From assembly GCA_963741715.1 (NCBI GenBank), contig CAVUJA010000001.1:2056205-2120204 (forward strand): a DNA stretch of 64,000 nt, written 5' to 3'. Positions within the stretch are counted from its first letter, which is position 1, and every line of letters starts with the position of its first letter. The notes under the pieces are model-generated. The model had not been told where the DNA came from and searched no databases. It saw only the letters and a list, made by a program, of their open reading frames with translations. Both the position numbers and the translations under genes were made by a program. This stretch comes from an uncultured Acidobacteriota bacterium (GTDB lineage Bacteria; Acidobacteriota; Vicinamibacteria; Vicinamibacterales; Fen-181). Below, in pieces: positions 1 to 59,174 of the stretch.

Positions 1-3000
1 GCCGCTATCCTTCCGACGAGTTCGCCGAACTGCGGCCCCGGCTCACCTGGGACCGGATTGGCGGCACCCTCGCGCCCAGGCAGGGCGCCGGTCGCGTGGC
101 CATCGTCAACGGGGGCACGATCCCGGACCGCGGGCTCTACGGCGTGTTCCTCGCGGGCGCAGGCAAGGGCGCCGCGCGCGTCGGCGAACTCGACGAGGAG
201 ATGGTGTTCGAATCGCGGGCCGGGGAGACGTTCGTGCTCGGCGCCTCGACGTGGCGGATCGAAGACATCACGCACGACAGGGTCGTCGTCTCTCCCGCGC
301 CCGGGGAGCCGGGGAAGATGCCGTTCTGGCACGGCGACCGGCCCGGCCGGCCGCTCGAACTCGGTCTCGCCATCGGCCGGCTGATCCGCGAACTGCGGAG
401 CCTGCCCCGTTCGGCGGCGATTGCGCGCCTGATCAAGGAGCACGACCTCGATCGCCGCGCGGCCGAGAACCTGCTCCTCTATCTCGGCGACCAGGAGCGC
501 GCCACGCAGGCGGTCCCGGACGACCGCACGCTGGTGATCGAACGCTACCGCGACGAGCTCGGCGACTGGCGCGTCTGCGTGCTCGCGCCCTTGGGGGGGC
601 AGGTGCTCGCGCCGTGGGCGATGGCCGCGGAAGCACGCGTCCGCGAGCACCGCGCCATCGACGTCGAGACCATGTGGTCGGACGATGGGTTCGTGGTGCG
701 GTTCCCGGACACCGACGAGCCGCCCGACGCGGCGCTGCTGCTGCCGCCGCCGGACGAGGCCGAACGGCTCCTGCTCCACCAGCTCGGCGGCACGGCGATG
801 TTCGCCGCGAGGTTCCGCGAGGTGGCCGCGCGCGCGCTGCTCCTACCCCGGCGGCGCCCGGGCGCGCGCACGCCGCTCTGGCAGCAGCGCAAACGCGCCT
901 CGGACCTGCTCGCGGTGGCCGCCCGCTTCGGCTCCTTCCCGGCGCTGCTCGAAACGTATCGCGAGTGCCTGCGGGACCAGTTCGACGTTCCGGCCCTGCT
1001 CGACGTCCTGGGGCGCGTCGCCTCGCGCGCGATCCGCGTCGCGACGGTCGATACGGAGAAGCCGTCGCCGTTCGCCTCGTCGCTCCTGTTCGCCTACACG
1101 GCCAACTTCATCTACGACGGCGACGCGCCGCTCGCCGAACGGCGGGCGCAGGCGCTGCTGGTGGACCAGTCGCAGCTGAGAGACTTGCTGGGAGACATCG
1201 AGCTGCGCGAGCTGCTCGACCCGGCAGTCATCGAAGACGTCGAGGCACAACTGCAGCACACCGACGCCAGGTACCGGGCCAGGAGCGCCGACGCCCTCCA
1301 CGATCTGCTGCTCCGCGTCGGCGACCTGTCGCGCGACGAGGTGGCGGCGCGAACCGCCAGCGACGCGGTTGCGCGGTCGATTCGCGCGCTCGTGCGCGAC
1401 CGCCGGGCAATCGAACTTCGCGTGGCCGGACACTCGCGGTACGTCGCCGCCGAAGACGCGGCCCGCTACCGCGACGCCCTGGGTGCGCCGCTCCCGCTCG
1501 GCCTGCCGGGCGCCCTGCTCGAACCGGTGGCCGATCCCCTGGGCGACCTCGTGCTCCGCTTCGCACGAACGCACGCGCCGTTCACGCCGCAGGCGGTCGC
1601 GACCCGGCTCGGCGTCTCGGCCGGCACCGTCGACGGCGCGCTCGCCCGCCTCGCCGCGCGCGGGCGAGCCGTCCAGGGCACGTTCACGCCGGGCAGGATC
1701 GGCCGCGAGTGGTGCGAGACCGAGGTGCTGCGAACCATCCGCCAGCGCTCGCTCGCAAGGCTGCGCCACCAGGTGGAGCCGGTCAGCGCGGCGGCGCTCG
1801 GCCGGCTGATGACGACGTGGCACGGCCTGCTGACGCGGCGGCACGGCCCCGATGCCCTGCTGGACGTCGTCGAACAGCTCCAGGGCGCGCCGATCGTCGC
1901 ATCGCTGCTCGAACGCGAGATCCTGCCCGCGCGGATCGAAGGATACCGCGCGGCCGACCTCGACTTGTTGAGCGGCGCGGGCGAGGTGGTCTGGGTGGGC
2001 GTCGGTGCGCTCGGCGAGCGCGACGGACGCGTCGCGCTCTACCTCACTGATCACCTGGCCGGCTTGCTGCCGCCGTCCGCCGACGCGGCCGGCGAACTCG
2101 ACGACCGGGCTCGGGCAATCGTCGCGCACCTGCAGCGCGAAGGCGCCTCGTTCTTCCCCGCCGTTCACGCCGCCGCCGGCGGAGGCTACCCGGGTGAAAC
2201 CGTGAGCGCGCTGTGGGACCTGGCGTGGCAGGGGATCGTCACCAACGACACCTTCCATGCGCTGCGCGCGTTCACCCAGCCGCCGGCGCGCCGGCGCCGG
2301 CGCGATCCCGAACGCGCCTTCCGTTCTCGGCGGCTCACGCCGCCAACGGCGGAGGGCCGTTGGAGCCTGGTCGCGGCGCGCGCCGCGGGCCGGCCCGGCG
2401 CCACCGGCTGGGCTGCGGCTGCCGCGCAGCAGTTGCTGAACCGCCATGGGGTCCTCACGCGAGAAGCCGTCGCGGTCGAGGGCCTGCCCGGGGGCTTCAG
2501 CGCCATCTACGACGTCTTGAAGGCGATGGAAGATGCCGGCCGGATCCGCCGCGGCTACTTCGTCGGGGGCCTCGCGGCCACCCAGTTCGCGCTGCCGGCG
2601 GCCGTCGATCTGCTTCGCTCGGTTCGCGACGAGCCCGAGTCGCCGCAGGCCGTGTGCCTCGCGGCCACCGATCCGGCGAATCCCTACGGCGCGATTCTCA
2701 AATGGCCGCAGGCCCTTTCGGGCGAGGGCCCGCGTGACCGCCGCGGGCCGACGCGTTCGGCCGGCGCCGGCGTGATCCTCGTGAATGGCGAGTTGGCGGC
2801 GTACGTCGGGCGAGCCGATCGGCAGTTCCTGACATTCCTGCCCGAAGACGAGCCGGCCCGCAGCACGTTCGCGCGCGAGGTGGCCGGCACGTTGTTCACG
2901 CTGGCGACATCCGAGGGCGACCGCGGGGGCATGCTGATCGGTGAGATCGACGGCGTGGACGCGGCACGTCACCCTCTGGCGCCGTTCCTGGTGGATGCGG

Positions 3001-3047
3001 GCTTCGTCCGCCGGGCGACCGGGTTCCAGGCGGCCCCGCCACGGTAG
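1..3047 (+). CDS. lhr: ATP-dependent helicase Lhr, C-terminal part (5' end lies outside the window)
   Basis: The reading frame is open from base 3 (RYPSDEFAELRPRLTWDR...GGTIPDRGLYGVF), so the track's start at 96 is an internal GTG. This is the long Lhr-type C-terminal region. It is followed by nei, as in the known lhr-nei operons. Confidence 0.85.
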   Translation, partial: RYPSDEFAELRPRLTWDRIGGTLAPRQGAGRVAIVNGGTIPDRGLYGVFLAGAGKGAARVGELDEEMVFESRAGETFVLGASTWRIEDITHDRVVVSPAPGEPGKMPFWHGDRPGRPLELGLAIGRLIRELRSLPRSAAIARLIKEHDLDRRAAENLLLYLGDQERATQAVPDDRTLVIERYRDELGDWRVCVLAPLGGQVLAPWAMAAEARVREHRAIDVETMWSDDGFVVRFPDTDEPPDAALLLPPPDEAERLLLHQLGGTAMFAARFREVAARALLLPRRRPGARTPLWQQRKRASDLLAVAARFGSFPALLETYRECLRDQFDVPALLDVLGRVASRAIRVATVDTEKPSPFASSLLFAYTANFIYDGDAPLAERRAQALLVDQSQLRDLLGDIELRELLDPAVIEDVEAQLQHTDARYRARSADALHDLLLRVGDLSRDEVAARTASDAVARSIRALVRDRRAIELRVAGHSRYVAAEDAARYRDALGAPLPLGLPGALLEPVADPLGDLVLRFARTHAPFTPQAVATRLGVSAGTVDGALARLAARGRAVQGTFTPGRIGREWCETEVLRTIRQRSLARLRHQVEPVSAAALGRLMTTWHGLLTRRHGPDALLDVVEQLQGAPIVASLLEREILPARIEGYRAADLDLLSGAGEVVWVGVGALGERDGRVALYLTDHLAGLLPPSADAAGELDDRARAIVAHLQREGASFFPAVHAAAGGGYPGETVSALWDLAWQGIVTNDTFHALRAFTQPPARRRRRDPERAFRSRRLTPPTAEGRWSLVAARAAGRPGATGWAAAAAQQLLNRHGVLTREAVAVEGLPGGFSAIYDVLKAMEDAGRIRRGYFVGGLAATQFALPAAVDLLRSVRDEPESPQAVCLAATDPANPYGAILKWPQALSGEGPRDRRGPTRSAGAGVILVNGELAAYVGRADRQFLTFLPEDEPARSTFAREVAGTLFTLATSEGDRGGMLIGEIDGVDAARHPLAPFLVDAGFVRRATGFQAAPPR

Positions 3048-3085
3048 CGAGCTGGTGAATGGGCAACCCGCGTCTGCCGCGCCGT

Positions 3086-3139
3086 TTGCGCATTGTGCAT
3101 TGTGCATTGTGCGTTGTGCATTGTGCGTTGTGCGTTGAC
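3086..3139. repeat. 7-bp tandem array (CATTGTG/CGTTGTG, about 7 units)
   Basis: Direct reading gives cattgtg cattgtg cattgtg cgttgtg cattgtg cgttgtg cgttgac. It lies between the lhr stop and the nei start. Confidence 0.9.
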
Positions 3140-3162
3140 CTGCTCTTCTACACTCGTTGGCC

Positions 3163-3990
3163 ATGCCAGAAGGTGACACGATCTTCCGCGCGGCTCGCAC
3201 GCTGCATCTCGCCCTGGCCGGACGGGCGGTCACGCGGTTCGAGACCGTGCTCCCGTCGCTTCAGCGGGTGCACGACGACCGGCCGATCACCGGTCGGACG
3301 GTGAACGCGGTGCGCGCGGTCGGCAAGCACCTGCTGATGGCGTTCTCGGGCGGGCTCGTCCTGCGCACTCACATGCGGATGAACGGCAGCTGGCACGTCT
3401 ACCGGCCGGCCGAGCGCTGGCAGCGCGGCCGCGCGGCGATGCGCATCGTCGTCGGCAACGCCGAATACGTGGCGGTGGCGTTCGACGTGCCGGTGGCGGA
3501 GTTCGTGGCGGCCCGGGAACTGGGGCGTCATTCGGAGTTGTCGGCGCTCGGGCCCGATCTGCTGGCGGAGGATTTCGACGCCGGGGAGGCCGTCGCCCGG
3601 ATGCGCGCGCGGCCGGCCGCGGCGATCGCCGACGCGCTCCTCGACCAGCGCATCGCGGCAGGCGTCGGCAATGTCTTCAAGTCGGAGGTGTTGTTCGTCT
3701 GCGGCGTGGATCCGTTCCGGCTCGTGTCCACGCTCTCGGACGGGGACCTCAGGCGGGTGATCGACGCGAGCCGCCAGCTGCTGAAGGCGAACGTGATCGA
3801 CGCCGCGCGGTCCGGGGCGCCCGGGTGGGGCGGCGCCCGCACGACCACGCGGCGGATGAATCCGGCGGCGAGGCTGTGGGTCTACGGACGCGCCGGGCGG
3901 CCGTGCCGGCGCTGCGGGACGCCAGTCAGCTGCCGCAAGCAGGGCGCGAACGCGCGCGGCACCTATTGGTGCCCGACGTGCCAGAAGTAA
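3163..3990 (+). CDS. nei: Fpg/Nei family DNA glycosylase (endonuclease VIII-like)
   Basis: The ATG at 3163 gives an N-terminal MPEGDT, with the catalytic Pro2 required by the family. The track start at 3157 is a TTG. The C-terminus carries a zinc finger, CRRCGTPV...YWCPTCQK. Confidence 0.9.
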   Translation: MPEGDTIFRAARTLHLALAGRAVTRFETVLPSLQRVHDDRPITGRTVNAVRAVGKHLLMAFSGGLVLRTHMRMNGSWHVYRPAERWQRGRAAMRIVVGNAEYVAVAFDVPVAEFVAARELGRHSELSALGPDLLAEDFDAGEAVARMRARPAAAIADALLDQRIAAGVGNVFKSEVLFVCGVDPFRLVSTLSDGDLRRVIDASRQLLKANVIDAARSGAPGWGGARTTTRRMNPAARLWVYGRAGRPCRRCGTPVSCRKQGANARGTYWCPTCQK

Positions 3991-4023
3991 GGACGGACGG
4001 GCATCCTGTGCCGGCATCGTGCC

Positions 4024-4079
4024 GTGTGTGCATTCTGCATTCTGCATTCTGCATTTTGCATTTTGCATTCTGCATTGAC
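4024..4079. repeat. 7-bp tandem array (CATTCTG/CATTTTG, about 7 units)
   Basis: Direct reading gives cattctg x3, cattttg x2, cattctg, cattgac. It lies just downstream of the nei stop. Confidence 0.9.
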
Positions 4080-4135
4080 CCTCCGTAAGCTGACCCTCCG
4101 TAAGCTGACACTCCGCGAGCTGACACTTGACGCAA
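4076..4135. repeat. 15-bp tandem repeat (TGACCCTCCGTAAGC, about 4 units, decaying)
   Basis: The units read tgaccctccgtaagc, tgaccctccgtaagc, tgacactccgcgagc, tgacacttgacgcaa. It is contiguous with the preceding heptamer array. Confidence 0.85.
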
Positions 4136-4164
4136 GTCCGCCTTCCCTGAGATACTCCACTTCG

Positions 4165-4254
4165 ATGTTGACGATCCGCACCACCGCGATGCCGATGCCG
4201 ATGCCCATGTCGATGGGCATGGGGGTCGGCGTGGTGCGTGCGATCGACGGCTAG
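4165..4254 (+). CDS. candidate Met-rich leader peptide (29 aa, MLTIRTTAMPMPMPMSMGMGVGVVRAIDG)
   Basis: There are six ATG codons within codons 9-19, which is very unusual in a GC-rich genome. An intrinsic terminator follows, and the unit lies upstream of hom-metY. No clear SD is visible. Confidence 0.45.
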   Translation: MLTIRTTAMPMPMPMSMGMGVGVVRAIDG

Positions 4255-4281
4255 TCCAGCTGCAAGCGATCGACACCAGCA

Positions 4282-4322
4282 CCCGCCGACCTGGGACGCC
4301 AGACGGCGGGTTTTGTTTTTTT
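4282..4322 (+). terminator. intrinsic terminator (attenuator 1)
   Basis: The hairpin cccgccgacctgg-gacg-ccagacggcggg is followed by ttttgttttttt. Confidence 0.75.
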
Positions 4323-4333
4323 GTGCGCCCATC

Positions 4334-4501
4334 ATGAACGACACCTTCGACGCCGCCATCGTTGAACGGAACGCCGCCAGCATCCCGCCGGCGTCGTCGA
4401 CCTCCGCCCGCGCGCGCACCACCGTCGCGACCGCGACGACCATGACCGTGCGCATGTGGACCATGTCCACGATGCGCATGCAGCCCAACGAGAGCGGGTG
4501 A
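4334..4501 (+). CDS. candidate Thr/Met-rich leader peptide (55 aa, ...RTTVATATTMTVRMWTMSTMRMQPNESG)
   Basis: There are 8 Thr and 5 Met codons in a 23-codon stretch near the C-terminus. A second terminator lies 31 nt downstream and the hom start is at 4601. No clear SD is visible. Confidence 0.35.
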   Translation: MNDTFDAAIVERNAASIPPASSTSARARTTVATATTMTVRMWTMSTMRMQPNESG

Positions 4502-4532
4502 TCCGGCAGCATTCCCGAGAGATTTCGACGGG

Positions 4533-4575
4533 GCCGTCATCCGCAAGAGGTTGCGGGTGGCGGCTTTTTTCGTTT
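4533..4575 (+). terminator. intrinsic terminator (attenuator 2) immediately upstream of hom
   Basis: A 14-bp stem, gccgtcatccgcaa-gagg-ttgcgggtggcggc with 2 G-U pairs, is followed by ttttttcgttt. It lies 26 nt before the hom SD and ATG. Confidence 0.75.
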
Positions 4576-4600
4576 GGCGAGACCAACGGGGAGAAGGCAG

Positions 4601-5638
4601 ATGTCGCTGCGAATCGGATTGGTGGGCTTCGGCACGGTCGGACAATCGGTGGCGAGGCTGCTGCTCCACGGCGGCGATCGGCGCCTGCGCCTCGTCAGGG
4701 TGTGCGGACGCCCTGGCGGCCGGGAGCGGCCTGCCTGGCTGCCCGCGTCCGTCGCCTGGACCACGCGTTTCGACGATCTCGTCGCCCGCGACATCGACGC
4801 CGTGGTCGAGCTGGTCGGCGGCGTGCAACCCGCACGGCAGTGGCTGCACAGGGCGCTGCTCGGCGGGAAATCGGTGGTGACGGCGAACAAGCAACTGGTG
4901 GCCGAGCACGGGCCCGAACTGCTCGCGCTCGCCGCCCGCGCCGGTGGCGCGCTCCGCTACGAAGGCGCCGTTGCCGGCGGCATCCCGGTCATCCGCGCGA
5001 TCGAGGACGGCCTCTCCGGCGATCGCCTGGTCAGGGTCGCCGGCATTCTCAACGGCACGTGCAACTACATCCTCACCCGCATCGAACAGCAGGGCCTGCC
5101 CTTTGCCGACGCGCTGCGCGAGGCCCAGACGCTGGGGTATGCGGAGGCGGACCCATCCGCAGACGTCGAGGGCTTCGACGCGCGGGCGAAGCTCTCGATT
5201 CTCTGCCAGGCCGCTTTCGGCATCCGCGTGCGCCCTTCGCAGGTAGAATGCGCATCGATCGCCTCCATCGCACACGAAGACTTCGCCGAGGCGCGGCAGC
5301 AGGGCTGCACGATTCGCCAGGTCTCGCGCGCGGCGCGCGTCGGGGCATCGCTGTCCGAGGTCGTGGCGTCGGTTCGCCCCGCGCTGGTGCCCCTCGACAG
5401 CCCGTTCGCGAAGGCGAGCGGATGCCAGAACGTCGTCTCGGTGCACGGCGAATTCGGCGGCGAGACGCTGTTCGCCGGCCAGGGCGCCGGCGGCGACGCG
5501 ACGGCGGTGGCGGTGGCTTCGGACCTGCTGGCCGTCGCCGCGAGAAGGAGCCAGGTTCCGTTGCCGCGCCCGATCGCGGTGACTGCCAATCCTGGGAGGC
5601 GAGGGCTGGCGGTCGCCTCACAAGTTGCGGGATTCTGA
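4601..5638 (+). CDS. hom: homoserine dehydrogenase
   Basis: The protein starts [15 protein letters not shown] (NAD-binding fold) and carries [11 protein letters not shown] and [21 protein letters not shown] motifs. An SD, ggggagaagg, lies upstream of the ATG at 4601. Confidence 0.9.
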
Positions 5639-5702
5639 CGCCCGCGTCGATCAACCTCGACCCGGAATGGGGCTCGGCCCCTTTCACAGGAAGGACAACG
5701 AC

Positions 5703-7019
5703 ATGTCGAACGAGCACGCCTACCGTCCCGCCACCATCGCCCTGCACGGAGGGCACCAGCCCGACTCGTCGAGCCGGGCGAGGGCCGTGCCGATCTACCA
5801 GACCACGTCGTACGTCTTCGACTCGGCCGACCACGCCGCCGACGTCTTCGCGCTGAAGACGCCCGGCAACATCTACACCCGCATCACGAATCCGACCACG
5901 GCGGTGCTCGAGGAACGCCTGGCGCAGCTGGATGGGGGCGTGGGCGCGCTGGCGCTCGCGTCGGGCCAGGCGGCCATCACGCTGGCCGTGCTCAACCTGA
6001 CGAGCGCGGGCCAGAACTTCGTCTCCACCCGGTCGCTCTACGGCGGCACCTACAACCTGTTCCGGCACACGCTGGCACGGTTCGGAATCGAAGCGAGGTT
6101 CGTGGACTCCTCCAACGTCGATGAGGTCGAAGCGGCGATCGACGGGAATACGCGGCTCGTGTACACGGAGTCGATTGGCAACCCGAAGAACAACGTCGAC
6201 GACTTCGACGCGATCGCCGCGGCGGCCCATCGGCACGGCCTGCCGTTCGTCGTCGACAACACCGTCTCGCCGTTCATCTTCCGCCCCTTCGACCACGGCG
6301 CCGACGTCATCGTCTACTCGCTGACGAAGTTCGTCGGCGGGCACGGCACGTCGATTGGCGGCGCGATCGTCGACTCCGGCCGGTTCGGCTGGGACAACGG
6401 CCGGTTCCCCGAGTTCACCGAGCCCGACCCGTCCTACCACGGCCTCGTCTTCGCCAGCCTTCCCGCGCCGTACATCACCAAGGCACGCGTCCAGCTGCTG
6501 CGCGACCTCGGCCCGTGCCTGTCGCCGTTCAACGCCTTCCTGTTCGTCCAGGGGCTCGAGACGCTGCCGCTGCGCATCAACGCACACTGCCTCAACGCCC
6601 TCGCCGTGGCCGAGTGGCTGGGCGCCAACCCGCACGTCGCCTGGGTCAACTACCCGCTGCTCCCCGGGCACCCCGACTACGAGCGTGCGAAGCGGTACTT
6701 CCCGAAGGGCGCGGGCGCGATCGTCGGATTCGGCATCCGCGGCGGTCTCGAAGCGGGCAAGCGGGTCATCGACGGTGTCCGGCTGTTCAGCCACCTGGCG
6801 AACATCGGCGACGCGAAGAGCCTGATCATCCACCCCGCCTCCACGACGCACCAGCAGCTGTCGGCGGAGGAACGGGTGGCGAGCGGCGTCACCGACGACT
6901 TCATCCGCCTGTCGATCGGCACGGAGGACATCGCCGACATCATCGAGGACCTGGAGCAGGCGATCGTCGCGTCGCAGCAGCAGACAGGCTCGCACAAGCC
7001 GCTGCTCCTGGTGGGCTGA
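5703..7019 (+). CDS. metY: O-acetylhomoserine sulfhydrylase (Cys/Met PLP-dependent family)
   Basis: The start region [17 protein letters not shown]...[10 protein letters not shown]...NPT matches the family. [10 protein letters not shown] contains the PLP-binding lysine region. Confidence 0.9.
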
Positions 7020-7577
7020 CGGCCAGGCTTGGCCCTGCGCTCCGTGCGCTCCTCGGGATCGATGCCATCCGCATGAGCCGTTCGACGGTTTCAACCACGA
7101 GCCCACAGAGGCTGTCACGCGCGACGGCATCGCGGCTCGGCCACCGGCTCCCACGCCCCCGGTGGGCGAGCCGGGAGGGGCGGCGGGGCGGCGCCGGCAC
7201 GACAAGCACGGGCGCGGGAGGCTTCTCGTGGCGGCGCGGCCCCGCCGCCCCTCGCGCCACGGGCTTCGCCCGCGGCGCCGATGCCCGCGGTCACCGGATC
7301 TCTCACGGGCGACGGGTGCCGATCTGCCCTTGTGGGCTCTGTGAGCTCGGTGGTTCCTCCCGCATTCCATCCGCCCGAGAATGTGCACAATCCTGAGCCT
7401 GCGCTCACTTGCGTTGAGTCGGGGCTCTCGGTCCGTCGCGACGCTGCGAGTGGCGGGTGGCCGGGCTGGCCGCATCTGCCCCTCGACGGCGCTCGGGGCA
7501 CGGTGAGCCTTGCCGAACCGTGGCGACCGCGCGGGCCGACGCGTCCCGCGGCCGAGCGCGGAGCGTCTGAGCGCGCA

Positions 7578-8042
7578 CTACTTGACCGTGAGGGTGCCCT
7601 TCATGCCGACGTTGAAGTGGCCAGGGAAGGTGCAGATGAACATGTAGTCGCCCCGCTGCGCGGGCGCGGTGAAGGTGACCTCCGCGGTTTCACCGGGACC
7701 AACCAGCTTCGTGTAGGCGAGAAGCAGCGGCTGGACGGCGGGCGCCAGGAAGTCCGTGTCGCGCGCCGACGCCGACTTGTCGACGACGGTCTTCGCGTCC
7801 GAGGCCTTCTTCAGCAGGACGAAGTTGTGGCCCATCGCCACCTTGGGCATGTTGCCGACGTCCTCGAGTACCACCTTGATCGACTCGCCCGGAGTTGCGG
7901 CGATCGCGGCGGGGGCGAACCTCATGTTGTCGCCGACCTGGATCTCGATCACCCGCGGCGCGGCCGCCGCCGGTGCGACCGGCACGACCGCGAACGACAG
8001 CAGCACGACGCACAGACTCGCAATTGCGCGCACACGTCCCTC
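7578..8042 (-). CDS. azurin-like blue copper protein (cupredoxin) with signal peptide
   Basis: The copper-ligand pattern MGHNFVL ... CTFPGH...M(KG) is present. A GTG start at 8042 is preceded by a GGAGG SD. The longer track ORF is upstream read-through. Confidence 0.8.
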   Translation of the reverse strand, partial: EGRVRAIASLCVVLLSFAVVPVAPAAAAPRVIEIQVGDNMRFAPAAIAATPGESIKVVLEDVGNMPKVAMGHNFVLLKKASDAKTVVDKSASARDTDFLAPAVQPLLLAYTKLVGPGETAEVTFTAPAQRGDYMFICTFPGHFNVGMKGTLTVK

Positions 8043-8124
8043 CGCTCTGAAGCAACCTGGTACCCACAGTGGACGAGCCCCTCCTCCACGGTAACCAATC
8101 ACCTCTGCCGGCGCAACCGCCGGT

Positions 8125-9057
8125 TCAGCCGGCGAACACGCTCTCGAGGACGAAGAGGACGTTCGCGGGCCGCTCGGCCAGCCGCCGCATGTACCACGGG
8201 AACCAGAACTCGCCGTAACTGACCAGCACCCGCAGCGGCGCGTGCTGGGCGGCGAGCCGGGCCTGGAGCGATCGCCGGATCCCGTAGAGCATTTCGAACT
8301 CGCACCCGATCGTGTTCGAGACGCGGCGGGCAAGGGCCGTGCGAATGCGGGTGATCAGCCGCTCGTCGTGCGTGCCCACCGCGAGGAACGCGCCCGCCGG
8401 CACACCCGGCCGCAGCATGCGCAGCGCGAGCTGGTGATAGTTCTCGTCCACGTCGGCCTTGCGGGGAAATGCGAGTTCGGGCGGCTCGCGGTAGGCGCCC
8501 TTGACCAGGCGGATGGCCGGAGCCAGCGGCAGCAGCGCCTCGAGGTCGTTCCGGGTGCGCCGGAGGTAGGCCTGCAGGCAGACGCCGACCCTGGTCGATC
8601 CGGCGCGCGCGCGGCGAAACAGCTCCAGCGTCGCGTCGACGTACTTGGTGCCCTCCATGTCGATCCACACCATGTTGCCGTGCGACTCGGCGCGGGCGAC
8701 GAGCAGGGCCAAGTTGCGGCCGCAGGCGTCGAGGCCGAGATCCAGGCCAAGTTGCGTGAGCTTCACCGACACCTGCGCGTCGAGCCGCATCGTCGCGATG
8801 CGGTCGATGAGTTCGAGGTAGTGTCGCGTGACCGCCTCGGCTTCCGCGAGGCTCGACAGGTTCTCGCCCAGGTGCGTGACGATGGTGCCGGCCCGGTGCT
8901 GCTCCTGCAGCTGGCGGCAGGCGTCCAGCGCCTCTTCCATGGTTTCGCCCGGCATGAAGCGGGAGGTCGATCGGCGCACGAAGGGCAGGCGTGTCGCCTT
9001 CTCGCGCAGCCAGACGCTCTCGGCCCCGGCAAGCAGGGCGCTCCTCATGATTGACAT
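8125..9057 (-). CDS. proline dehydrogenase (monofunctional PRODH family)
   Basis: Family-like stretches include VSVKLTQLGLD, VWIDMEGTKYVD, RLVKGAY and FEMLYGIR. The start is taken at MSIMRSALL (ATG at 9057). Confidence 0.75.
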   Translation of the reverse strand: MSIMRSALLAGAESVWLREKATRLPFVRRSTSRFMPGETMEEALDACRQLQEQHRAGTIVTHLGENLSSLAEAEAVTRHYLELIDRIATMRLDAQVSVKLTQLGLDLGLDACGRNLALLVARAESHGNMVWIDMEGTKYVDATLELFRRARAGSTRVGVCLQAYLRRTRNDLEALLPLAPAIRLVKGAYREPPELAFPRKADVDENYHQLALRMLRPGVPAGAFLAVGTHDERLITRIRTALARRVSNTIGCEFEMLYGIRRSLQARLAAQHAPLRVLVSYGEFWFPWYMRRLAERPANVLFVLESVFAG

Positions 9058-9225
9058 CGCGTGGGCACCCCTCCACCATCTTAACAAGCCGCCGGCGTTC
9101 GGCTCGCCAATGACGAGCTTTGAGGCCGCTGCGGTGGCTGTTATGCTCGAAGAAAGGGTTGCCCGCAACGACCACGAATCGGTCCGGTCTGTGTTGCACG
9201 AACAGGCCGCAGCTGCGCATCGAGG

Positions 9226-9403
9226 CTGGATGCCTTGAGGGGCTGGAATCCTTGCGAATGAGTCAAGTTCTCGCGACGCCATCCGGGCCCCTCAAGGCAT
9301 CTAGAGCCCCGCGCTCGCGCGGGGCCAGCCAACAGCGTTTCTGGTCTAGCGAGGCGGGCGTCGTCGCCGGACATGCTTGGCGGTCCGAGGCCCGCCTCGC
9401 TGG
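9226..9403 (+). repeat. structured intergenic repeat element, copy A (about 178 bp, three nested hairpins)
   Basis: About 90% identical by eye over about 133 bp to the reverse complement of 27909-28080. Hairpin 1 is gatgccttgagggg...cccctcaaggcatc, hairpin 2 is gccccgcgc-tcg-cgcggggc, and hairpin 3 is agcgaggcggg...cccgcctcgct. Confidence 0.85.
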
Positions 9404-12916: not shown

Positions 12917-13001
12917 CCTCCCTCGTCCCTCGTCCCCCGTCCCTCGTCCCTCGTCCCTGTTAACTCTTCCTTCTTCCCTCTTCCCTCTTCCCTCTTCCCT
13001 G
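12917..13001. repeat. 7-bp tandem arrays (CCCTCGT x5, then CCCTCTT x4)
   Basis: They fill the convergent gap between the truA stop (12916) and the amidohydrolase stop (13002). Confidence 0.9.
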
Positions 13002-30652: not shown

Positions 30653-30740
30653 TCGTGCCGAATGTCGAATGTCGAATGCCGAATGTAGAATGTAGAATGT
30701 CGAATGTCGAATGTAGAATGCCGAATGTAGAAATGTCGGG
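30653..30740. repeat. 7-bp tandem array (GAATGTC/GAATGTA/GAATGCC, about 11 units)
   Basis: The reverse complement belongs to the GCATTCN family. It lies in the divergent phr-galM gap and is preceded by an AT-rich aatataacaaaagg. Confidence 0.92.
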
Positions 30741-32018: not shown

Positions 32019-32138
<120 letters not shown>

Positions 32139-33612: not shown

Positions 33613-35751
33613 TCACCGTGTCCCCAAGTACTTCCGCGGCTCCTGCGCGAATCTCCGTTTGCATTCCTCCGAACAGAAGTAGTACCGGTTGCCGTTGAAG
33701 TCGAGCGTGAGGCCAGCAGCCAGTGCCTGCGCCTGGACTGTGGCCATCCCGCAAACGGGGTCGATGGCGTCGTGTGTACCTGGTCCGGGCCTGGCTTGTA
33801 CGTCGGAGGAACCGTTGATGGCGGGATTCTCGCCGCCGAGCGGACTAGCCTGGGCGACTCGGGGAAACCCGGGCCGGGCGTGGTACCCTGGCCGGCGGTC
33901 AGCCGTCGTGGCCGCAAGCCGAGTTGCGGGGAGAGCAGCCGTCGCGGTGTCGGCCGAACGCACGGCCGCCTCGTCCACCTCTGTCTCGACCGCCGGAGTC
34001 GCCGCAACAGGGCCAGGCGGTTGCACTTCGGCCTTCGCGGCGTATCGAGCAGGGTCCTTGTCGAACTCCGCCTTGCAGGCGTCTGTCAGGAAGTAGTAGG
34101 TCTTCCCCGCATGGGTCGACCTCAGGACGTTGGGCGCGGTGACATCCACGTCCGCGCCGCAGACGGGGTCAGTTCTGAAGACGCTGCGACCGGTCGCCAC
34201 TGGCGGCGAGGCAGGTCCCGGGTCGGACACGCCGGCCGGGTCGGCCACGGGGCTCCGCCAATCCCGGGCGGCACCGGGCGCCGGGGCGGGAACCGCGGCG
34301 GATGTCGCCCGCCCGGATGACGGCGGCGGCGCCGCCTCCTTCTCCGCATACTCCGCGGGCTTCGCCTCGAACTGCTTCTTGCACAGATCGGAGCAGAAGT
34401 AGTAGGTGCGGCCCTGGTGCGCGACGGCATGGCCGTCGGCGGTCGCCTTGGACCTGTCCACCGACATGCCGCAGACCGGATCGGTTTCCGGGACCGTGAT
34501 ACCGGTCGCCGCGAGCTGCATCCGGCTCTCGGAATCGATGAGAAAGTTGCCAGCCACGACTACCTGGTCGCCTGGCACGAGTCCCCGCACCACTTCGATC
34601 CGGTCATCAACCCTCCAGCCCGTTTCAATCCGGCGCGGCTCGAAGTAGCCGTTGCCGCGGTCGACGAACACGGTCTTCCGGATGCCGGAGTCCACGACGG
34701 CATCGACGGGAACCGTGATCGACTCCGGCAGGCTGACTGACAGGTCCACGTCGACGAACATGCCCGGGCGCAGCGCGAACCCCGGGTTTGGCGTGTCCAG
34801 TCGGAGCTTCAGCGTCCGGGTGGATGGGTCGAACTGGGGAAGGACGTCCCCCATCCGGCCGGAGATGGACGCGCCCTCGCTGTAAGGCAGCGAGATCTTC
34901 GCCGCGGCGCCTGGCTGGACGTAGCGCGCGTCGCTCTCGAAGAGGTCCGCCAGCACCCAGACGTTGGTGAGGTCCGCAATCTTGTAGAACTCGGTCGCGC
35001 GGTCGAATCGCTGGTTGGGAGACGCGCTGCGCTCCAGAACGTACCCCGATACCGGAGAGCGGAGTTCGATGGTTGCCACCCGCTGCCGTGTCCGCGCAAT
35101 CGCGGCGATCTGCGTGTCGCTCATGCCCAACGCCTGCAGGCTCTCGGTGGCCTGCCTGACCTGGTCGCGGGTGAGGTCCGACTGCTCGGTCGGCTCGCCC
35201 TTGTCGGCGCTGATCCGATCGAGCGTGTTCAACGCATAGATGAACGCCTGTTGCGCCGCGAGCGAATCGCGGCTGTAGAACGTCAGCAGCAGCTGGTCCC
35301 TTCGCACCAGGCTGCCGGCCGAATTGGGGAGGAGTTCCCGGATCGTGCCCTCCCCGGCAGCGATAAGCCGGTAGATCCGGTTCTCGTCCACCGTCACGCG
35401 GCCCACGGTCCTGATCTTCCGCGTGACCGACGATCGTGCGACCTGGCCCACCCGGATGCCGAGGACCTGCTGGCGCTCCACGGGCACCCGCAACGCGCCG
35501 GGCGGGACAGACGACCCGCTGGCGACGGCGGGGTCGTCGGCATAGACCGGTTCGAGCTTCATCCCGCAGTCGGGCGCGGTGCCGGGCTTGTCCGACTTGT
35601 AGGAGGGGTGCATCGGATCGACCCAGTAGAGCACCCGTCGCGCCGCCACGGGCGGTCCCGCCCCGTGAGCGCGCCACGTCAGCCAGGCGCCCCCCAGGAA
35701 GCACGCGGCGCCGAAGGCGACAACGAGGGCCACCGATGTCAGCCTCTTCAT
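33613..35751 (-). CDS. CusB-like RND periplasmic adaptor with an N-terminal heavy-metal-binding motif and three C-terminal YHS/TRASH domains
   Basis: The N-terminus reads YWVDPMHPSYKSDKPGTAPDCGMKLEP and is followed by an MFP core. Three DPVCG(M)...YYF(C/L)S..C...F...P..Y modules follow, separated by Pro/Ala-rich linkers. Confidence 0.8.
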   Translation of the reverse strand: MKRLTSVALVVAFGAACFLGGAWLTWRAHGAGPPVAARRVLYWVDPMHPSYKSDKPGTAPDCGMKLEPVYADDPAVASGSSVPPGALRVPVERQQVLGIRVGQVARSSVTRKIRTVGRVTVDENRIYRLIAAGEGTIRELLPNSAGSLVRRDQLLLTFYSRDSLAAQQAFIYALNTLDRISADKGEPTEQSDLTRDQVRQATESLQALGMSDTQIAAIARTRQRVATIELRSPVSGYVLERSASPNQRFDRATEFYKIADLTNVWVLADLFESDARYVQPGAAAKISLPYSEGASISGRMGDVLPQFDPSTRTLKLRLDTPNPGFALRPGMFVDVDLSVSLPESITVPVDAVVDSGIRKTVFVDRGNGYFEPRRIETGWRVDDRIEVVRGLVPGDQVVVAGNFLIDSESRMQLAATGITVPETDPVCGMSVDRSKATADGHAVAHQGRTYYFCSDLCKKQFEAKPAEYAEKEAAPPPSSGRATSAAVPAPAPGAARDWRSPVADPAGVSDPGPASPPVATGRSVFRTDPVCGADVDVTAPNVLRSTHAGKTYYFLTDACKAEFDKDPARYAAKAEVQPPGPVAATPAVETEVDEAAVRSADTATAALPATRLAATTADRRPGYHARPGFPRVAQASPLGGENPAINGSSDVQARPGPGTHDAIDPVCGMATVQAQALAAGLTLDFNGNRYYFCSEECKRRFAQEPRKYLGTR

Positions 35752-35881
35752 GTCGAACTCCCGGAGCAGAACGAGCCGGTCCGGCCCACCAGCGGCCTGC
35801 CGGACCGACTCCAGTTGATGCGCCGTGCGAGGCCCCGCGGACGAGCCATCGGCCCGCGAGGCCGCCGCGGAACATCGCGCC

Positions 35882-38048
35882 CTACGGCTTCGACAGAGGC
35901 GTGACGACCAGCGGCCGCATCATGTCGTGCTCTTCGTGCTCGAGGATGTGGCAGTGCCACACGTACTCGGTACTTTCCCTTGAACCGAGGGCTCGTCGGG
36001 ACCTTCACGGGGAACTTGTGGTTGATCTTCACCGGCATGTTCGGGAGATCGAACCGCATGGCCACCACCGTCACCTCGCCGGGGTTCATGCGGACGGTTT
36101 CCTTCCACCCGGTCTCGTTCGCGTCGGGTGGCCGGAGGTCGCCGATCGGCGCGAAGGTCGGTCCTTTCTCGTCGAACGGCGCGCGACCAATGATCTTCAC
36201 GTTGGCGATGTGGAAGTGAATCGGGTGCGTGTCGCCCGTCTGATTGTAGATCTCCCAAATCTGGGTCTCGCCCTCGTCCGGCATATTCTCTTCCGGCGTG
36301 ATGGCGTCCAGGTAGTTCATCGAGTATGTCGTGTTGCCCTCGTTGTTCAGGCCGCGCGGGACCGTCGTGCCGAGCCGCTGGATCAGGCGGCCGTACTGAT
36401 CGAAGTCCTCGTTGAGGGTCTTCTGGACGAGCGTGGCGCCCCTCGTATCCAGCTCGTTGTCCCCCTGCCTCCAGGCGTCGTACAGCGCGTTGGTGGCGGC
36501 AGTCAGCCAGGCGTCGTACGACACCGCGTCCCGGGTGCCGTCGTCGACAACGCGGATCTGCAGCACCCCACGGGTATCGGGCCCGTATGCCGGGTTCTGT
36601 CCCTTCTGGTTCACGCCGCCCCAGGGGCTCCAGTCCCCGGAGCCGGCATAATAGTCGTTGCGCGGGTCGCCCCCCGGGAACGGCGCAGGGGCGTCGTTGT
36701 ACAGCATCAGCACGCTGTTGTTCGGGCACTTGGAGAAGTCGATGACCACATCCGCCCGCTCAGCGCCTCCGAGCAACAGGTTGTAGCCCACGGCGTTCCC
36801 GTTGGCGTCGAAGCCGAGCGCCGGGTGAGGCGGGTTGTTGAACACCGCCGGCGCAGGCAGGAACCCGCCCTCCGTGCCGAGTTGCACGATCGGGGGGCCG
36901 GGCTTCTTCAGGTTAACCTTGAAGCCGTTGCCCGTCGCATACCAAAGCGACAGGTTGAACATCCGGGCCTGCGAACCGTTCAGCATCCGGAACCGCATGC
37001 GGCGCCGCGGGACCTCGAGGAATGGATAGGCGGCTCCGTTGAGAACGATGTTGTCCGAGAAGAACTCCGGAATGCACGAGTTGTCCGGCAGGGGCTGAAT
37101 TGGGGAGCCGCCGCGGTCCCATCGACCCGTGACGCCATAGGTGTCGCGGTTGAAGTCGGGCAGTTCGTCGAGGGCGTTGGGCCCCTCGTAGACGTTCGGG
37201 TACCACAAGTCGCCGGCCTTGCCCCGCCGGTCGGCCACCTTCTTGTAGGACTTGTCCTGGAGCACGAGCGGGATGCCGACGAGATTCGGCAAGACACCGG
37301 CGTCGACCATGCCGGTTTCGACGTCGTCGATGAGGACGTACGGCGCGGCGAGGCCGGCATAGGCGTTCAGCCGCGTGATACCCACGGCATGGTCGTGGTA
37401 CCACATGAGCCGTGCGCTCTGCTGGTTCGGATACCAGTAGTCGCTCGTCTTCTTGCCGGCGGCGTCCGGCAGCCAGTCCACGAGGGACGGCCCGTGCGCG
37501 CCCGACGGCGCGAACCAGTGGAACGGCCCGCCGTCGCTCATCCACGGCACGACGCCGCCGTGCAGGTGGACGGAGGCTCGATTCGGCAGCTGACCGGTCT
37601 CCGCGCCTGGGAGAGTGTTGTCCACCGGAAGCGGGTGGACGGGCGGGAGCAGGTTCGTGAACTTGATCCGCACCGGTTTGTCCCGCGTCGCGACGATGGC
37701 CGGTCCGAGATAGCGGAAGGGTGTCGCCCCATTGGTGGCGTCGGCGTAACCCCACAGCTTCGTCGGCCCGGGCAGGTCCGGGTGCATCCACTGCTGGTAT
37801 TGGCCCATGACGATGCGATAGAAGTCCACCGGGATCGAGGCACCCCCGGCGAACTGTGCGGTGTAGAACTCCGTCTTGCTCGCGGAAGCCACCGGGATGC
37901 CGGCCGGGCCGACACCGGGCAGCCGCTGGATGAACCTCCGCAGCGGTGGGCTCTGCGCGAAGGCGTAGACCTTCCCGTTCCCGGCGACCCAGAGGCCCGC
38001 GGTCGCCATCGCCGATGTCGTGATGAAACGCCGTCTCGTCAATCTCAT
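35882..38048 (-). pseudogene. Tat-exported multicopper oxidase, interrupted by a 1-nt insertion near 35969 just before the last copper site
   Basis: A Tat signal (RRRFITTSAMA) and copper sites HLHGG, WYHDH and HPIHFH are in frame. After ...PRFKGKY the true continuation EYVWHCHILEHEEHDMMRPLVVTPLSKP* lies in the next frame (plus strand gtactc[g]gtactt). The length is 3n+1. Confidence 0.8.
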
Positions 38049-42600: not shown

Positions 42601-42625
42601 AGCGCGTGACAACTGTGATCTTCAA

Positions 42626-42880
<255 letters not shown>

Positions 42881-45030: not shown

Positions 45031-45443
45031 GCTCGGCCTCCTCGTGCGACGAGTGACTTGCCGGATGCTATCACGGCAGCTGGCAGCGGATCACAGATGC
45101 GCGAGGCCGGCGGCAGGCAGCGTGCAAGATTAGATGAGAGTCCACGATTCCGAGTCGTCCGCGTGCCGTGGGCCCATCGGCTTCCGACTCGCCTCCGCAC
45201 GCCGGGAAACCGTCGTCGCTCTGCACCGGTTTCCGGCGGGAAGTGCCCGGCGCGCGCTAAAGCCGTGGCTCGAGCGGCCGCGCATCGCCGGGGGAAAGGC
45301 ACCCCAACGCGGCTGCCGCGTTGGGGGCCCCGCCTGGAGGCGCACCCGCTCCTCGGTTTCCGAGCGACGTGACGGCCTGCTCCGAAGCGATTCGTCCGCC
45401 GACAGGCCCGCGCCTCACGGCCGATCCCGAATCGTGGACTTCT

Positions 45444-45545
45444 GTCTCGGTTTCTCGACTCTTTGACTCGGACTCTCGACTGTCGACTGTCGACGCTCGA
45501 CTCTCGACTGGGAACTCTTGACTTTCGACTCTCGACTCCTGACTA
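45444..45545. repeat. 7-bp tandem array (CGACTCT/CGACTGT/TGACTCT family, about 14 units)
   Basis: The sequence reads ...ctcg actcttt gactcgg actctcg actgtcg actgtcg acgctcg actctcg.... The array overlaps the cusA stop codon (45543-45545). Confidence 0.92.
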
Positions 45546-48500: not shown

Positions 48501-48816
48501 GCGCCCAGTAGATGTCGGTGCCTTCGTCGAAGATCACGTAGACGAACGAGTAGCCGAAGTCGGAGAACCCGCGCACCGCCCGCACGTGCGGCGCGCCCAG
48601 CATGGCGGTGACGATCGGATACGTCACCTGGTCCTCGACGACGTCGGGGCTGCGGTCCCATCGCGAGTAGATGATGACCTGCGTGTCGCTGAGATCGGGG
48701 ATGGCGTCGAGGGGAACGGTCCGCACCGCCACCGCGCCCGCGACGGCCGCGATGGCAATCAGCAGCAGGACCAGGAACTTGTGCTCGACGGAGAAGTCGA
48801 TGACGCGGTTGATCAT
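45543..48816 (-). pseudogene. cusA: CusA/CzcA-type heavy-metal RND efflux pump, interrupted by a 1-nt insertion near 46815
   Basis: MINRVIDFSVEHKF... runs to ...WYSSWAPGWLSL in one frame. VFRHVTPDRISQEELVNQLNTALELPGVSNAWTMPIKARIDMLTTGIRTP... continues in the next frame (gene strand agtctc[g]gtcttc). The length is 3n+1. Confidence 0.88.
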
Positions 48817-48865
48817 GGTTCGGCCCCGACGTGCGACCTCTATCCGGCTTGCGGCGCCGCCATCG

Positions 48866-48928
48866 GCTTACGACTCTCGACTTTCGACTGAGGACCCTTG
48901 ACTCTCGACTCTTGACTCTCGACTACCT
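48866..48928. repeat. 7-bp tandem array (ACTCTCG/ACTTTCG/ACTCTTG, about 8 units) inside the cusB-cusA junction
   Basis: It belongs to the same family and has the same orientation as the array at 45444-45545. Confidence 0.9.
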
Positions 48929-57342: not shown

Positions 57343-57497
57343 TGGCTAGTGGCCAGTGATCAGTGGCTTGTGGGTCACGCGTAACAATGTGGCAGACTAA
57401 CCACTGACCGCTAGCCACTAACCACTAGCCACTGACCACTAGCCACTAGCCACTGACCACTAGCCACTTGCCACTGACCACTAGCCACTAACCACTA
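57342..57497. repeat. opposed 7-bp arrays (GTGGCTA/GTGGCCA arm versus about 14 units of CCACTAG/CCACTGA/CCACTAA)
   Basis: The left arm (57342-57378) is the approximate reverse complement of the long right arm (57399-57497). This is the largest array in the window. Confidence 0.92.
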
Positions 57498-59070: not shown

Positions 59071-59174
59071 GTCATTCAGCATTCGGCATTCGGCATTCCG
59101 CATTGCGCGTCTTGCCCGTTGTGCATTTTGCATTGTGCATTCTGCATTTTGCATTGTGCATTGTGCATTCTGCT
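59071..59174. repeat. 7-bp tandem arrays (GCATTCG x3 and related, then TGCATTN x7)
   Basis: The units read cattcag cattcgg cattcgg cattccg cattgcg ... gtgcatt ttgcatt gtgcatt ctgcatt ttgcatt gtgcatt gtgcatt. It runs into the stop codon of the mrfB-like gene (59173). Confidence 0.92.

Follow-up and report, generated by a model that had tools for sequence, protein, structure and literature searches.

Two putative methionine-codon leader-peptide attenuators in series ahead of hom-metY in an uncultured Acidobacteriota bacterium

Leader-peptide attenuation is the textbook mechanism for the genes of Trp, His, Leu, Thr, Phe and Ile/Val, and the methionine genes are textbook cases of control by S-adenosylmethionine (SAM) riboswitches, T-boxes or repressors. 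Seliverstov et al. assigned methionine to riboswitch control and not to attenuators, and found no RNA element for methionine in Actinobacteria (PMC1262725). A full-text literature search, with most subscription journals outside its coverage, returned no established methionine leader-peptide attenuator and a single proposed one, 'metL' of Streptomyces lividans. The latter (MSTTSDRTPATEATTTPGARCMCRRMCAF, located before metNIQ) has two internal Met and three Cys, lacks a typical terminator and is not backed by comparative data in the publication, and trpL, leuL and ilvL of the same organism are leaderless leader peptides (PMC8079986). For mycobacteria, a preprint describes attenuators formed by leaderless poly-Cys short open reading frames (sORFs) (bioRxiv 10.1101/834739), and Naville and Gautheret noted in 2010 that attenuators predicted in Acidobacteria had essentially no annotation (PMC2965389). 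The present analysis concerns a stretch of 64,000 nucleotides from an uncultured Acidobacteriota bacterium of the Vicinamibacterales (contig CAVUJA010000001.1), referred to here as the window, and within it the leader that precedes hom and metY, the genes for a homoserine dehydrogenase and an O-acetylhomoserine sulfhydrylase. The Lon protease encoded in the window shares 90-94% identity with proteins listed under Vicinamibacterales bacterium, placing the DNA in the Acidobacteriota, class Vicinamibacteria.

The hom-metY leader is a conserved regulatory element, and we consider it probable that it acts as two ribosome-mediated transcription attenuators in series that read the charging of elongator Met-tRNA. 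An earlier sequence-only reading of the window had placed the attenuator at 4165-4322; the element proposed there is real, and it is the first of two candidates, as a second leader ORF and a second terminator before hom had been missed. The structural hallmarks of classical attenuators are present, namely leader ORFs after a predicted promoter, a conserved run of regulatory codons, and terminators before the first gene. The features of the two leaders are as follows.

4165-4254, + strand: leader ORF 1 (sORF1), 29 codons, translation MLTIRTTAMPMPMPMSMGMGVGVVRAIDG followed by a stop
4171-4246, + strand: long hairpin formed by pairing of region 1, the 5' half of sORF1 with its early Met codons, with region 2, the 3' half
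4189-4221, + strand: regulatory Met-codon run 1, ATG at 4189, 4195, 4201, 4207, 4213 and 4219, i.e. every second codon at positions 9-19
4224-4231, + strand: 5' strand of putative anti-terminator 1, GGUCGGCG, inside region 2
4281-4322, + strand: intrinsic terminator 1, hairpin 4281/4282-4310/4311 (-21 to -24 kcal/mol), T-tract TTTTGTTTTTTT at 4311-4322
4334-4501, + strand: leader ORF 2 (sORF2), 55 codons, translation MNDTF...TTMTVRMWTMSTMRMQPNESG followed by a stop
4448-4479, + strand: sORF2 Met-run hairpin, GUGCGCAUGUGGAC-CAU-GUCCACGAUGCGCAU
4494-4502, + strand: 5' strand of putative anti-terminator 2, GCGGGUGAU (GCGGAUGAC in relatives), containing the sORF2 UGA at 4499-4501
4530-4575, + strand: intrinsic terminator 2, hairpin 4533-4564 (-26 kcal/mol), 5' arm GUCAUCCGC at 4536-4544, then TTTTTTCGTTT

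The 29-codon ORF with six ATG codons in eleven positions, which had first drawn attention to leader 1, was found as described, and its in-frame six-base periodicity was recovered by Tandem Repeats Finder as a period-6 array at 4187-4215, inside the Met run. The strong terminator said to lie 28 nt beyond this ORF is likewise present, with the correction that its hairpin begins 27 nt past the stop codon. The claimed perfect complementarity between GGTCGGCG (4224-4231) and, within the 5' arm of terminator 1, CGCCGACC (4284-4291) was confirmed as well; an 8-bp Watson-Crick match to this arm arises in 2-3% of dinucleotide shuffles. The minimum-free-energy and centroid folds, and an RNAalifold consensus of six sequences, all contain the long hairpin, on both arms of which CAUG palindromes place Met codons, and the leader-1 region folds with z = -5.6. 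Stalling through EF-P/polyproline at MPMPMP was ruled out, as the prolines are replaced in relatives. In leader 2, the Met codons of sORF2 (4442, 4454, 4463, 4472 and 4478; five in 13 codons) fall within the last 19 codons, and the hairpin that they form may cause pausing or serve as "region 1". Complementarity to the terminator 2 arm GUCAUCCGC is confined to one segment, GCGGGUGAU in the window or GCGGAUGAC in relatives, in which the leader ORF terminates.

Comparison with relatives was made over the window and seven other distinct loci of Vicinamibacterales type with readable DNA, whose Hom proteins are 57-68% identical to that of the window: L162, L163 (= L164), L165, L166, L167, L171 and L168 (= L169, L170). 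L161, with only 13 nt upstream of hom, lies outside this comparison. Leader 1, comprising sORF1 and its terminator, is present in 7/7 of the other core loci, and leader 2 in six of the seven, all but L168-L170; comparisons of leader 2 thus cover seven loci (the window, L162, L163, L165, L166, L167 and L171). The sORF1 peptides of the relatives are:

L162: MFTRRTTPMSMPVPMGMGMCVGVVRAIGR
L166: MLTRRSTRMSMPMPMGMGMRVGVVRAIDR
L163: MLTRRTTMSMPVPMTMGMCVGGVR
L165: MSRRETMLMWMCMPMGMRVGGVGAIDG
L167: MSMPRAEIMSMRMPIRMGMCVGEVRAIGG
L171: MLQRATMSMSMRMPGGIRADGVCDHN
L168: MLMRGASLMSMRMPKGIRVGGLRPLRD

A check of conservation had been suggested together with the original proposal, and its outcome argues for the attenuator interpretation: eight of eight distinct loci keep the leader-1 Met run together with its terminator and its anti-terminator pairing, the ATG codons are always in frame, and there is no SAM riboswitch or T-box. 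For terminator 1, 96.8% of cells are paired over the eight loci, compensatory changes occur in the upper stem, and 0/500 shuffles reach the observed score. The inner 7 bp of anti-terminator 1 are paired in 54/56 cells, slid controls reaching at most 58%, and the changes seen are one compensatory U-A to C-G (L171) and one wobble (L168). In the second leader, sORF2 starts 7-30 nt past the terminator 1 U-tract, and its counterparts in L162, L163, L165, L166, L167 and L171 are Met-rich and end in (S/G)G-UGA (for example ...SLSMPMPMSMHMRTLSAMCMRNRSSG and ...SMAMPMRSMAAMSMRRRGGG, each followed by a stop), with the second terminator present. Terminator 2, of 14 bp, is 100% paired in the seven loci; the sORF2 Met-run hairpin is paired in 89% of cells, with compensatory changes at three pairs; and the 9 bp between GCGGGUGAU and 4536-4544 are paired in 63/63 cells, slid controls reaching at most 67%. 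The anti-terminator 2 helix is invariant or varies by wobble only, showing no covariation over the seven loci, and its per-sequence shuffle p is 0.02-0.12 in relatives.

The gene upstream of the leader encodes an Fpg/Nei glycosylase (Pfam) in the window and differs elsewhere (Fpg, VTT-domain, Ddl, KARI, DUF362 or esterase), often on the opposite strand. The leader terminators are therefore not those of an upstream gene, and the element travels with hom-metY(-metX), the synteny of which is kept in the relatives. Assignment of terminator 1 to fpg was ruled out on the same grounds, the upstream gene being different or divergent in relatives. Gene maps of three closer relatives (Hom 73-78% identical) show the same synteny with a gap of about 500 nt kept before hom, and in one of the three a 29-residue gene is called inside this gap. 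Over 22 nt, GATGCCGATGCCCATGTCGATG, the window's sORF1 (4194-4215) is identical to sORF2 of L162 (2820-2841) and L166 (2819-2840), and this suggests that one stage arose from the other by duplication or that gene conversion took place between them. In the near-identical L168-L170, which have a single attenuator, metY (4038-5420) is called in two to three fragments or shortened; this could reflect frameshifts, pseudogenisation or long-read assembly errors.

The coding signature of the two sORFs bears on whether the Met codons are read by ribosomes. Over the eight sORF1s, 42/42 internal ATG trinucleotides are in frame, and over the seven sORF2s 41/47, the other six being the GGATGA stop motif; each locus has 4-6 internal Met codons in sORF1 and, where leader 2 is present, 5-7 in sORF2. 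Gaps in the sORF1 alignment are of 3 or 6 nt, and the Met columns are invariant or nearly so, with the codons between them drifting (P/S/V/R/W/C). In these Met-rich sORFs it is the codons and not the peptide on which selection acts. Of the sORF1 codons, 15-23% are Met, as compared with 0-0.6% in Hom and MetY and 1.56% in eight other window proteins. Hom proteins of the ACT-less clade (homologues P0001-P0062) have 0-2 internal Met per approximately 345 residues, and the window MetY has 2 per 464. This scarcity looks like amino-acid sparing in methionine-making enzymes, and is as expected because such proteins must be made during methionine shortage.

An alternative to translation of the Met run is a structured RNA that senses some other signal, as a new SAM or Met riboswitch or a protein-binding leader, in which the ATGs would be a by-product of the CAUG palindrome. 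The Met runs do lie within conserved hairpins, CAUG is self-complementary and AUG-rich arms pair mutually, RNA pairing accounts for at least part of the conservation in the 3' half of the sORF1 peptide, and the strength of leader folding (z-score -5.6) would fit such an RNA. However, the internal ATGs share one frame with a start and with a stop whose position with respect to the helices does not change, and gaps come in multiples of three. In two more distant loci, L096 and L146, the Met-rich sORFs are unrelated in sequence and in fold, and the N-terminal part of sORF2 is free in length and sequence, yet its frame stays open to the UGA within the anti-terminator. A conserved multi-helix core of the aptamer type is likewise lacking, as is any Rfam match. 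Scanning of 3000-9000 with Rfam 15 (cmscan, E <= 10) gave no known leader family (Trp_leader, His_leader, Leu_leader, Thr_leader, Phe leaders and others) and only two chance-level matches to unrelated families; one of them, osmY sRNA (16.2 bits against a gathering score of 46.9), overlaps terminator 2. At gathering score, a scan of the window and of 12 loci finds no SAM riboswitch (SAM-I/II/III/IV/V/VI, SAM-SAH), T-box or other Rfam family in the leaders of the window and of the Acidobacteriota loci, and it detects a SAM-I riboswitch before metY in the Bacillus locus L013 (90 bits). A structured RNA of this kind is judged unlikely.

It was further asked how often such leaders would arise by chance. 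Stop-free windows of 12 codons with at least four ATG number four in the six frames of the 64 kb, and the leaders account for two of these; the number of Met-rich windows expected per 64 kb under a second-order Markov model is 0.14, and 0/200 simulations reach at least five. The other two, at 47618-47700 on the + strand (...AMAMPPSDMMLAVMPMARNGMNAMS...), lie opposite the long AcrB/CusA-like ORF at 45415-48816 on the - strand. Probably they either arise as an artefact of the antisense frame or belong to an alternative + strand ORF at 46528-48891, and they were set aside as unrelated, lying opposite or within the AcrB/CusA-like gene. A terminator scan of the whole window returned about nine distinct candidate sites, the strongest two being the leader terminators. 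Profiles of both leaders found no further copy within the window (nhmmer), and the leader is therefore not a dispersed repeat. The absence of any regulation, with chance ORFs in GC-rich DNA next to ordinary or insulating terminators, would be easier to entertain at 69% GC, where open frames of 30-60 codons are common, and in a window full of short tandem repeats. Against it stand the two adjacent Met-rich windows set beside the Markov expectation, conservation of the element across eight loci despite changed neighbours, and the position of the window's two strongest terminators upstream of a gene, with several loci having no co-directional upstream gene; this is the least credible of the explanations weighed here.

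The operon downstream, its promoter and its ribosome-binding site are given below; the two genes named in the sequence-only reading were borne out by Pfam matches.

4127-4156, + strand: predicted sigma-70-like promoter, -35 TTGACG at 4127-4132, 18-nt spacer, TG-extended -10 GATACT at 4151-4156
4590-4597, + strand: Shine-Dalgarno (SD) sequence GGAGAAGG, preceding the hom ATG at 4601
4601-5638, + strand: hom, Pfam Homoserine_dh, 345 residues, no ACT domain, no internal Met
5625-7019, + strand: metY-like gene for O-acetylhomoserine sulfhydrylase, Pfam Cys_Met_Meta_PP (5e-129), 464 residues, start codon provisional

The promoter is the sole promoter-like site within 3500-8500, and its -10 hexamer ends 8 nt ahead of the sORF1 ATG. 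In all eight core loci a -10 hexamer (variants GATACT, TATCTT, CATCCT, CAGACT and GACAGT) stands 6-9 nt before this ATG, and a TTGAC-type -35 is recognisable in seven of the eight, giving the layout TTGACN, 17-18 nt, -10 hexamer, 6-9 nt, ATG. No SD sequence precedes sORF1 in any of the eight, whereas hom always has GGAG or AGGA 6-10 nt upstream of its ATG. Because the -10 lies only 6-9 nt before the ATG and an SD sequence is lacking, the sORF1 mRNA is predicted to be leaderless or near-leaderless, as holds for many leader peptides of Actinobacteria.

Directly upstream of this promoter lie a TGCATTC array of seven copies and then a 15-bp repeat of three copies (4076-4124). The window is generally rich in tandem arrays of 7-bp units, comprising different heptamers in 4-15 copies, several adjoining ORF ends (3086-3137, 4029-4076, 12919-13000, 30659-30738, 32075-32137, 42625-42674, 45453-45538, 57396-57497, 59073-59173 and others), and TTGTGCA arrays recur at 3086 and 59119. 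In relatives, too, short tandem repeats are found just upstream of the leader promoter, with units unrelated between loci: gtcagtcgatg in L163 (~950-1000), gggcataaagga in two copies in L165 (~2578-2600), ttgactccg in eight copies in L168 (2690-2775), and acggcgt in three copies in L171 (~2476-2500). Differing repeats at this one position may serve as arrays for protein binding or reflect a habit of the lineage across its genome.

Downstream of and convergent to hom-metY are a cupredoxin-like gene and a proline dehydrogenase gene (7578-8333 and 8125-9282, both - strand), an arrangement kept in relatives. Further away, at 33613-38048 and 45415-48816 on the - strand, lie genes for a multicopper oxidase, a CusB-like fusion carrying YHS/HMBD domains and an AcrB/CusA-type pump; together with the cupredoxin-like gene they look like a copper-handling neighbourhood. 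This setting invites the explanation that the sORFs encode Met-rich micro-proteins, for example Cu(I)-binding MxM peptides, and that the terminators merely separate the sORFs from hom. MxMxM motifs are typical Cu(I) ligands, every locus has a cupredoxin gene beside the operon, the window contains genes for copper efflux and for multicopper oxidase, and the sORF1 peptide is fairly conserved. However, Met-based copper sites are periplasmic, and the sORF peptides, judged by eye, have no evident signal peptide or membrane segment; moreover, the cupredoxin gene is convergent and not co-transcribed. The feature common to sORF2, L096 and L146 is Met richness alone, and the complementarity of the stop/3' region to the next terminator arm, as well as the travel of the element with hom-metY, would be left unexplained. 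We regard a micro-protein function as very improbable, if not quite to the degree of a chance origin.

For the two attenuators in series, the following course of events may be envisaged. Transcription would start at or a few nt from the sORF1 AUG, giving a leaderless mRNA. With methionine ample, the ribosome would pass the six AUG codons, region 2 (GGUCGGCG) would be first covered and then re-paired with region 1, and the terminator hairpin at 4281-4311 with its U-tract would form, so that RNA polymerase stops. With Met-tRNA scarce, the ribosome would stall at an early AUG (M9-M15) and hold region 1 open, and region 2 would pair with CGCCGACC in the 5' arm of the terminator, allowing read-through. 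It had been supposed earlier that a ribosome reaching the sORF1 stop codon masks 4224-4231; this would not hold, because with the UAG in its A site (4252) the ribosome would cover approximately 4237-4266. More likely, as the folding models suggest, this 8-mer is re-sequestered by the Met-codon arm in the long hairpin at about 4171-4246, following region-1:2 logic. At the second stage a ribosome at the sORF2 UGA would sit on GCGGGUGAU, and terminator 2 would form, whereas a stall at one or other of the five AUG codons, which lie 21-57 nt upstream, would leave GCGGGUGAU free to pair with GUCAUCCGC as an anti-terminator, and hom-metY would be transcribed. The two stages would multiply each other's effect. 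The scheme supposes that sORF1 and sORF2 are translated, that ribosomes stall at Met codons, and that the helices compete kinetically.

To model stalling, the 28-30 nt under a ribosome were kept from pairing for each A-site codon in turn, with equilibrium folding of the remainder. In the window the probability of terminator 1 falls from 0.99 to 0.00-0.23 with the footprint at the first three Met codons and their neighbours, is 0.62 at M15, and is back at 0.99 from codon 17 onward. The same model shows drops like that of the window in L165, L168 and L096, and partial drops in L162, L163, L166 and L167.

Several observations nevertheless weigh against control by two methionine-reading attenuators, the support for which is comparative and computational throughout. 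In the footprint model terminator 1 is undiminished in L171 and L146 and dominant in several relatives; terminator 2 (-26 to -30 kcal/mol) wins at equilibrium whatever the ribosome position; and a model of nascent-RNA snapshots, taken before the 3' arm exists, discriminates only partly. Neither the leader-2 footprint models nor the snapshots are counted as support for stage 2. The switch at stage 2, and at stage 1 in some relatives, must therefore be kinetic, because the terminators dominate at equilibrium. The trp attenuator likewise has a terminator more stable than its anti-terminator, and there too the decision is kinetic. Both anti-terminator helices are almost invariant, with one compensatory pair among the eight sequences, and being nearly invariant they offer conserved complementarity as support and not covariation. 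The leader-1 helix requires a mismatch or G-U pairs in L171 and L168, and the leader-2 helix (9 bp, two of them G-U), taken in the window alone, is not beyond chance (p ~0.08). Region 2 contains two of the six sORF1 AUG codons, and stalling at these would favour termination; sORF2 has neither an SD sequence nor a recognisable promoter in the core loci inspected. The comparison set is of eight distinct sequences, all of them metagenome-assembled genomes or metagenome contigs. Finally, methionine limitation should also lower formylmethionyl-tRNA (fMet-tRNA) and with it initiation on the leader, especially a leaderless one, and termination would therefore be favoured.

A further explanation is that the leader is a ribosome-dependent attenuator without Met specificity, reporting general translation capacity or initiation (fMet-tRNA or leaderless initiation), or acting through Rho or mRNA stability and not through the intrinsic terminators. 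The predicted leaderless start ties stage 1 to 70S/fMet-tRNA initiation, and the terminators are thermodynamically dominant in the models. In addition, the leaderless poly-Cys sORFs of mycobacteria are described, in the title and abstract of the preprint, just as attenuators of operonic expression (bioRxiv 10.1101/834739), and the mycobacterial cys leaders are without conserved terminator hairpins (PMC1262725). However, Met codons are the very feature that is conserved and enriched, the linkage is specific to hom-metY(-metX), and both terminators have canonical U-tracts and conserved competing helices. We hold general ribosome-dependent control to be improbable, rather more so than a structured RNA and rather less so than a micro-protein, and methionine-specific attenuation in two stages is retained as the probable function. 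More tentatively, the tandem design could tell methionine starvation from general loss of translation, because a leaderless stage 1 needs fMet-tRNA for initiation and the AUG run needs elongator Met-tRNA.

More distant loci were inspected in a set of 160, among the matches listed, in which Hom is at most 56% identical to that of the window. L096 is the only one of these 160 with metY directly after hom (Hom ~50% and MetY 61% identical); it has an unrelated sORF, MSTRCQIRTIVACRRPAMAMSMHMCTIRPTGAGFQQS, with a Met-rich segment ...RRPAMAMSMHMC..., and after it a terminator, 75 nt ahead of hom. On the short contig L146 there are an sORF MLATITARGSMCMRIRMTRMLHADGTRANAALN (...GSMCMRIRMTRM...) and a terminator 41 nt before hom. 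These Met-rich leaders would represent independent recurrence of the design, and are counted in favour of methionine-reading attenuation. By nhmmer, the leader-1 profile matches L146 and L084, and the leader-2 profile L081 and L115.

L084 and L115 are aspartate kinase-hom operons. In L115 an sORF cut at the contig end (1-130) lies upstream of aspartate kinase (294-1856) and hom (2012-); its product, ...LIISITGTILIRIVPSG followed by a stop, is Ile/Thr-rich like the E. coli thr leader and ends ...SG-UGA, with the UGA inside GCGGAUGAUG (GCGGATGATG), which pairs with a terminator arm CAUCAUCC. Judged by its sequence, this looks like a thr-leader-like attenuator on the scaffold of Met leader 2. Leaders consisting of an sORF and a terminator are also found in L084 (1186-1345, before aspartate kinase 1414-2913 and hom) and in L081 (2624-2765, before a hom ORF at 2815-4266), with peptides of mixed codon content, MSSMFQTIAMPTDMGTGTRISVWRGRR and MLVMMIVPSALFTTVPARCGHGG respectively. 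From L115, the Acidobacteriota appear to use leader-peptide attenuation for sister genes as well, which is counted in favour of attenuation at hom-metY. A modular attenuator of the Acidobacteriota can be put forward tentatively, with a recurring terminator/anti-terminator scaffold, regulatory codons swapped per operon, and two stages for methionine, although we would not call it probable. In such a scaffold the leader ORF may end ...(S/G)G-UGA inside GCGGAUGA(C/U), that segment pairing with the terminator arm, and the codons may be Met for hom-metY(-metX), Ile/Thr for aspartate kinase-hom (L115), and mixed in L081 and L084.

If the modular proposal is right, methionine synthesis in the phylum would be governed by Met-tRNA charging through the ribosome and not by SAM. 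A well-conserved Met-codon attenuator would make the ribosome a methionine sensor as well, even though methionine is also needed to start the leader peptide, which raises the question of how the charging of initiator and elongator tRNA-Met is balanced in starvation. The leaders would be among the first functionally interpretable cis-regulatory RNAs in the Acidobacteriota, an abundant soil phylum, and would offer a clear-cut case, found in nature, of serial attenuators that both depend on the ribosome. They also offer a search rule for uncultured lineages, namely a codon-run sORF and a terminator upstream of Met-poor enzymes.

In comparison with known systems, the leader shares with the classical attenuators (E. 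coli/Salmonella trpL, hisL, leuL, thrL, pheL and ivbL/ilvL) a short ORF with a run of codons for the end product, and a Rho-independent terminator whose 5' arm could alternatively pair with an upstream segment freed by a stalled ribosome; leader 1 would follow their region 1:2 / 2:3 / 3:4 logic. Unlike them, it uses methionine codons and has two complete putative attenuators in series, the first predicted to be leaderless. The Met codons alternate with other codons and lie on both hairpin arms through CAUG palindromes, the stop of leader 1 lies beyond region 2 and that of leader 2 inside the anti-terminator strand, and the host belongs to the Acidobacteriota (Vicinamibacterales), with no similarity to any Rfam leader family. 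The thr operon leader, with Thr/Ile codons, likewise places a homoserine dehydrogenase gene under attenuation control; the homoserine dehydrogenase of the present operon, by contrast, is a paralogue without an ACT domain and is linked to metY(-metX), and its leaders carry Met codons in place of Thr/Ile.

SAM riboswitches, Met T-boxes and MetJ/McbR have the same position, in the 5' leader of met genes, and the same output, termination versus read-through. Tandem riboswitch or T-box arrangements are known. In contrast to the riboswitches and T-boxes, the predicted signal here is the charging of Met-tRNA, read by the ribosome, and not SAM or an uncharged tRNA binding to the RNA. With the actinobacterial leaderless leaders there is in common an ORF at the 5' end without an SD sequence (the leaderless start being a prediction here), enrichment in cognate codons, and a position upstream of biosynthesis or uptake operons. 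By analogy, the leaderless poly-Cys sORF attenuators of mycobacteria may be considered the closest conceptual relatives. As compared with these cys leaders and with S. lividans 'metL', the Acidobacteriota leader has 4-6 conserved Met codons, canonical terminators with U-tracts, a tandem layout, and conserved anti-terminator complementarity. Belonging to no catalogued family, it would be set apart from known attenuators by its Met specificity, its tandem design and its predicted leaderless start.

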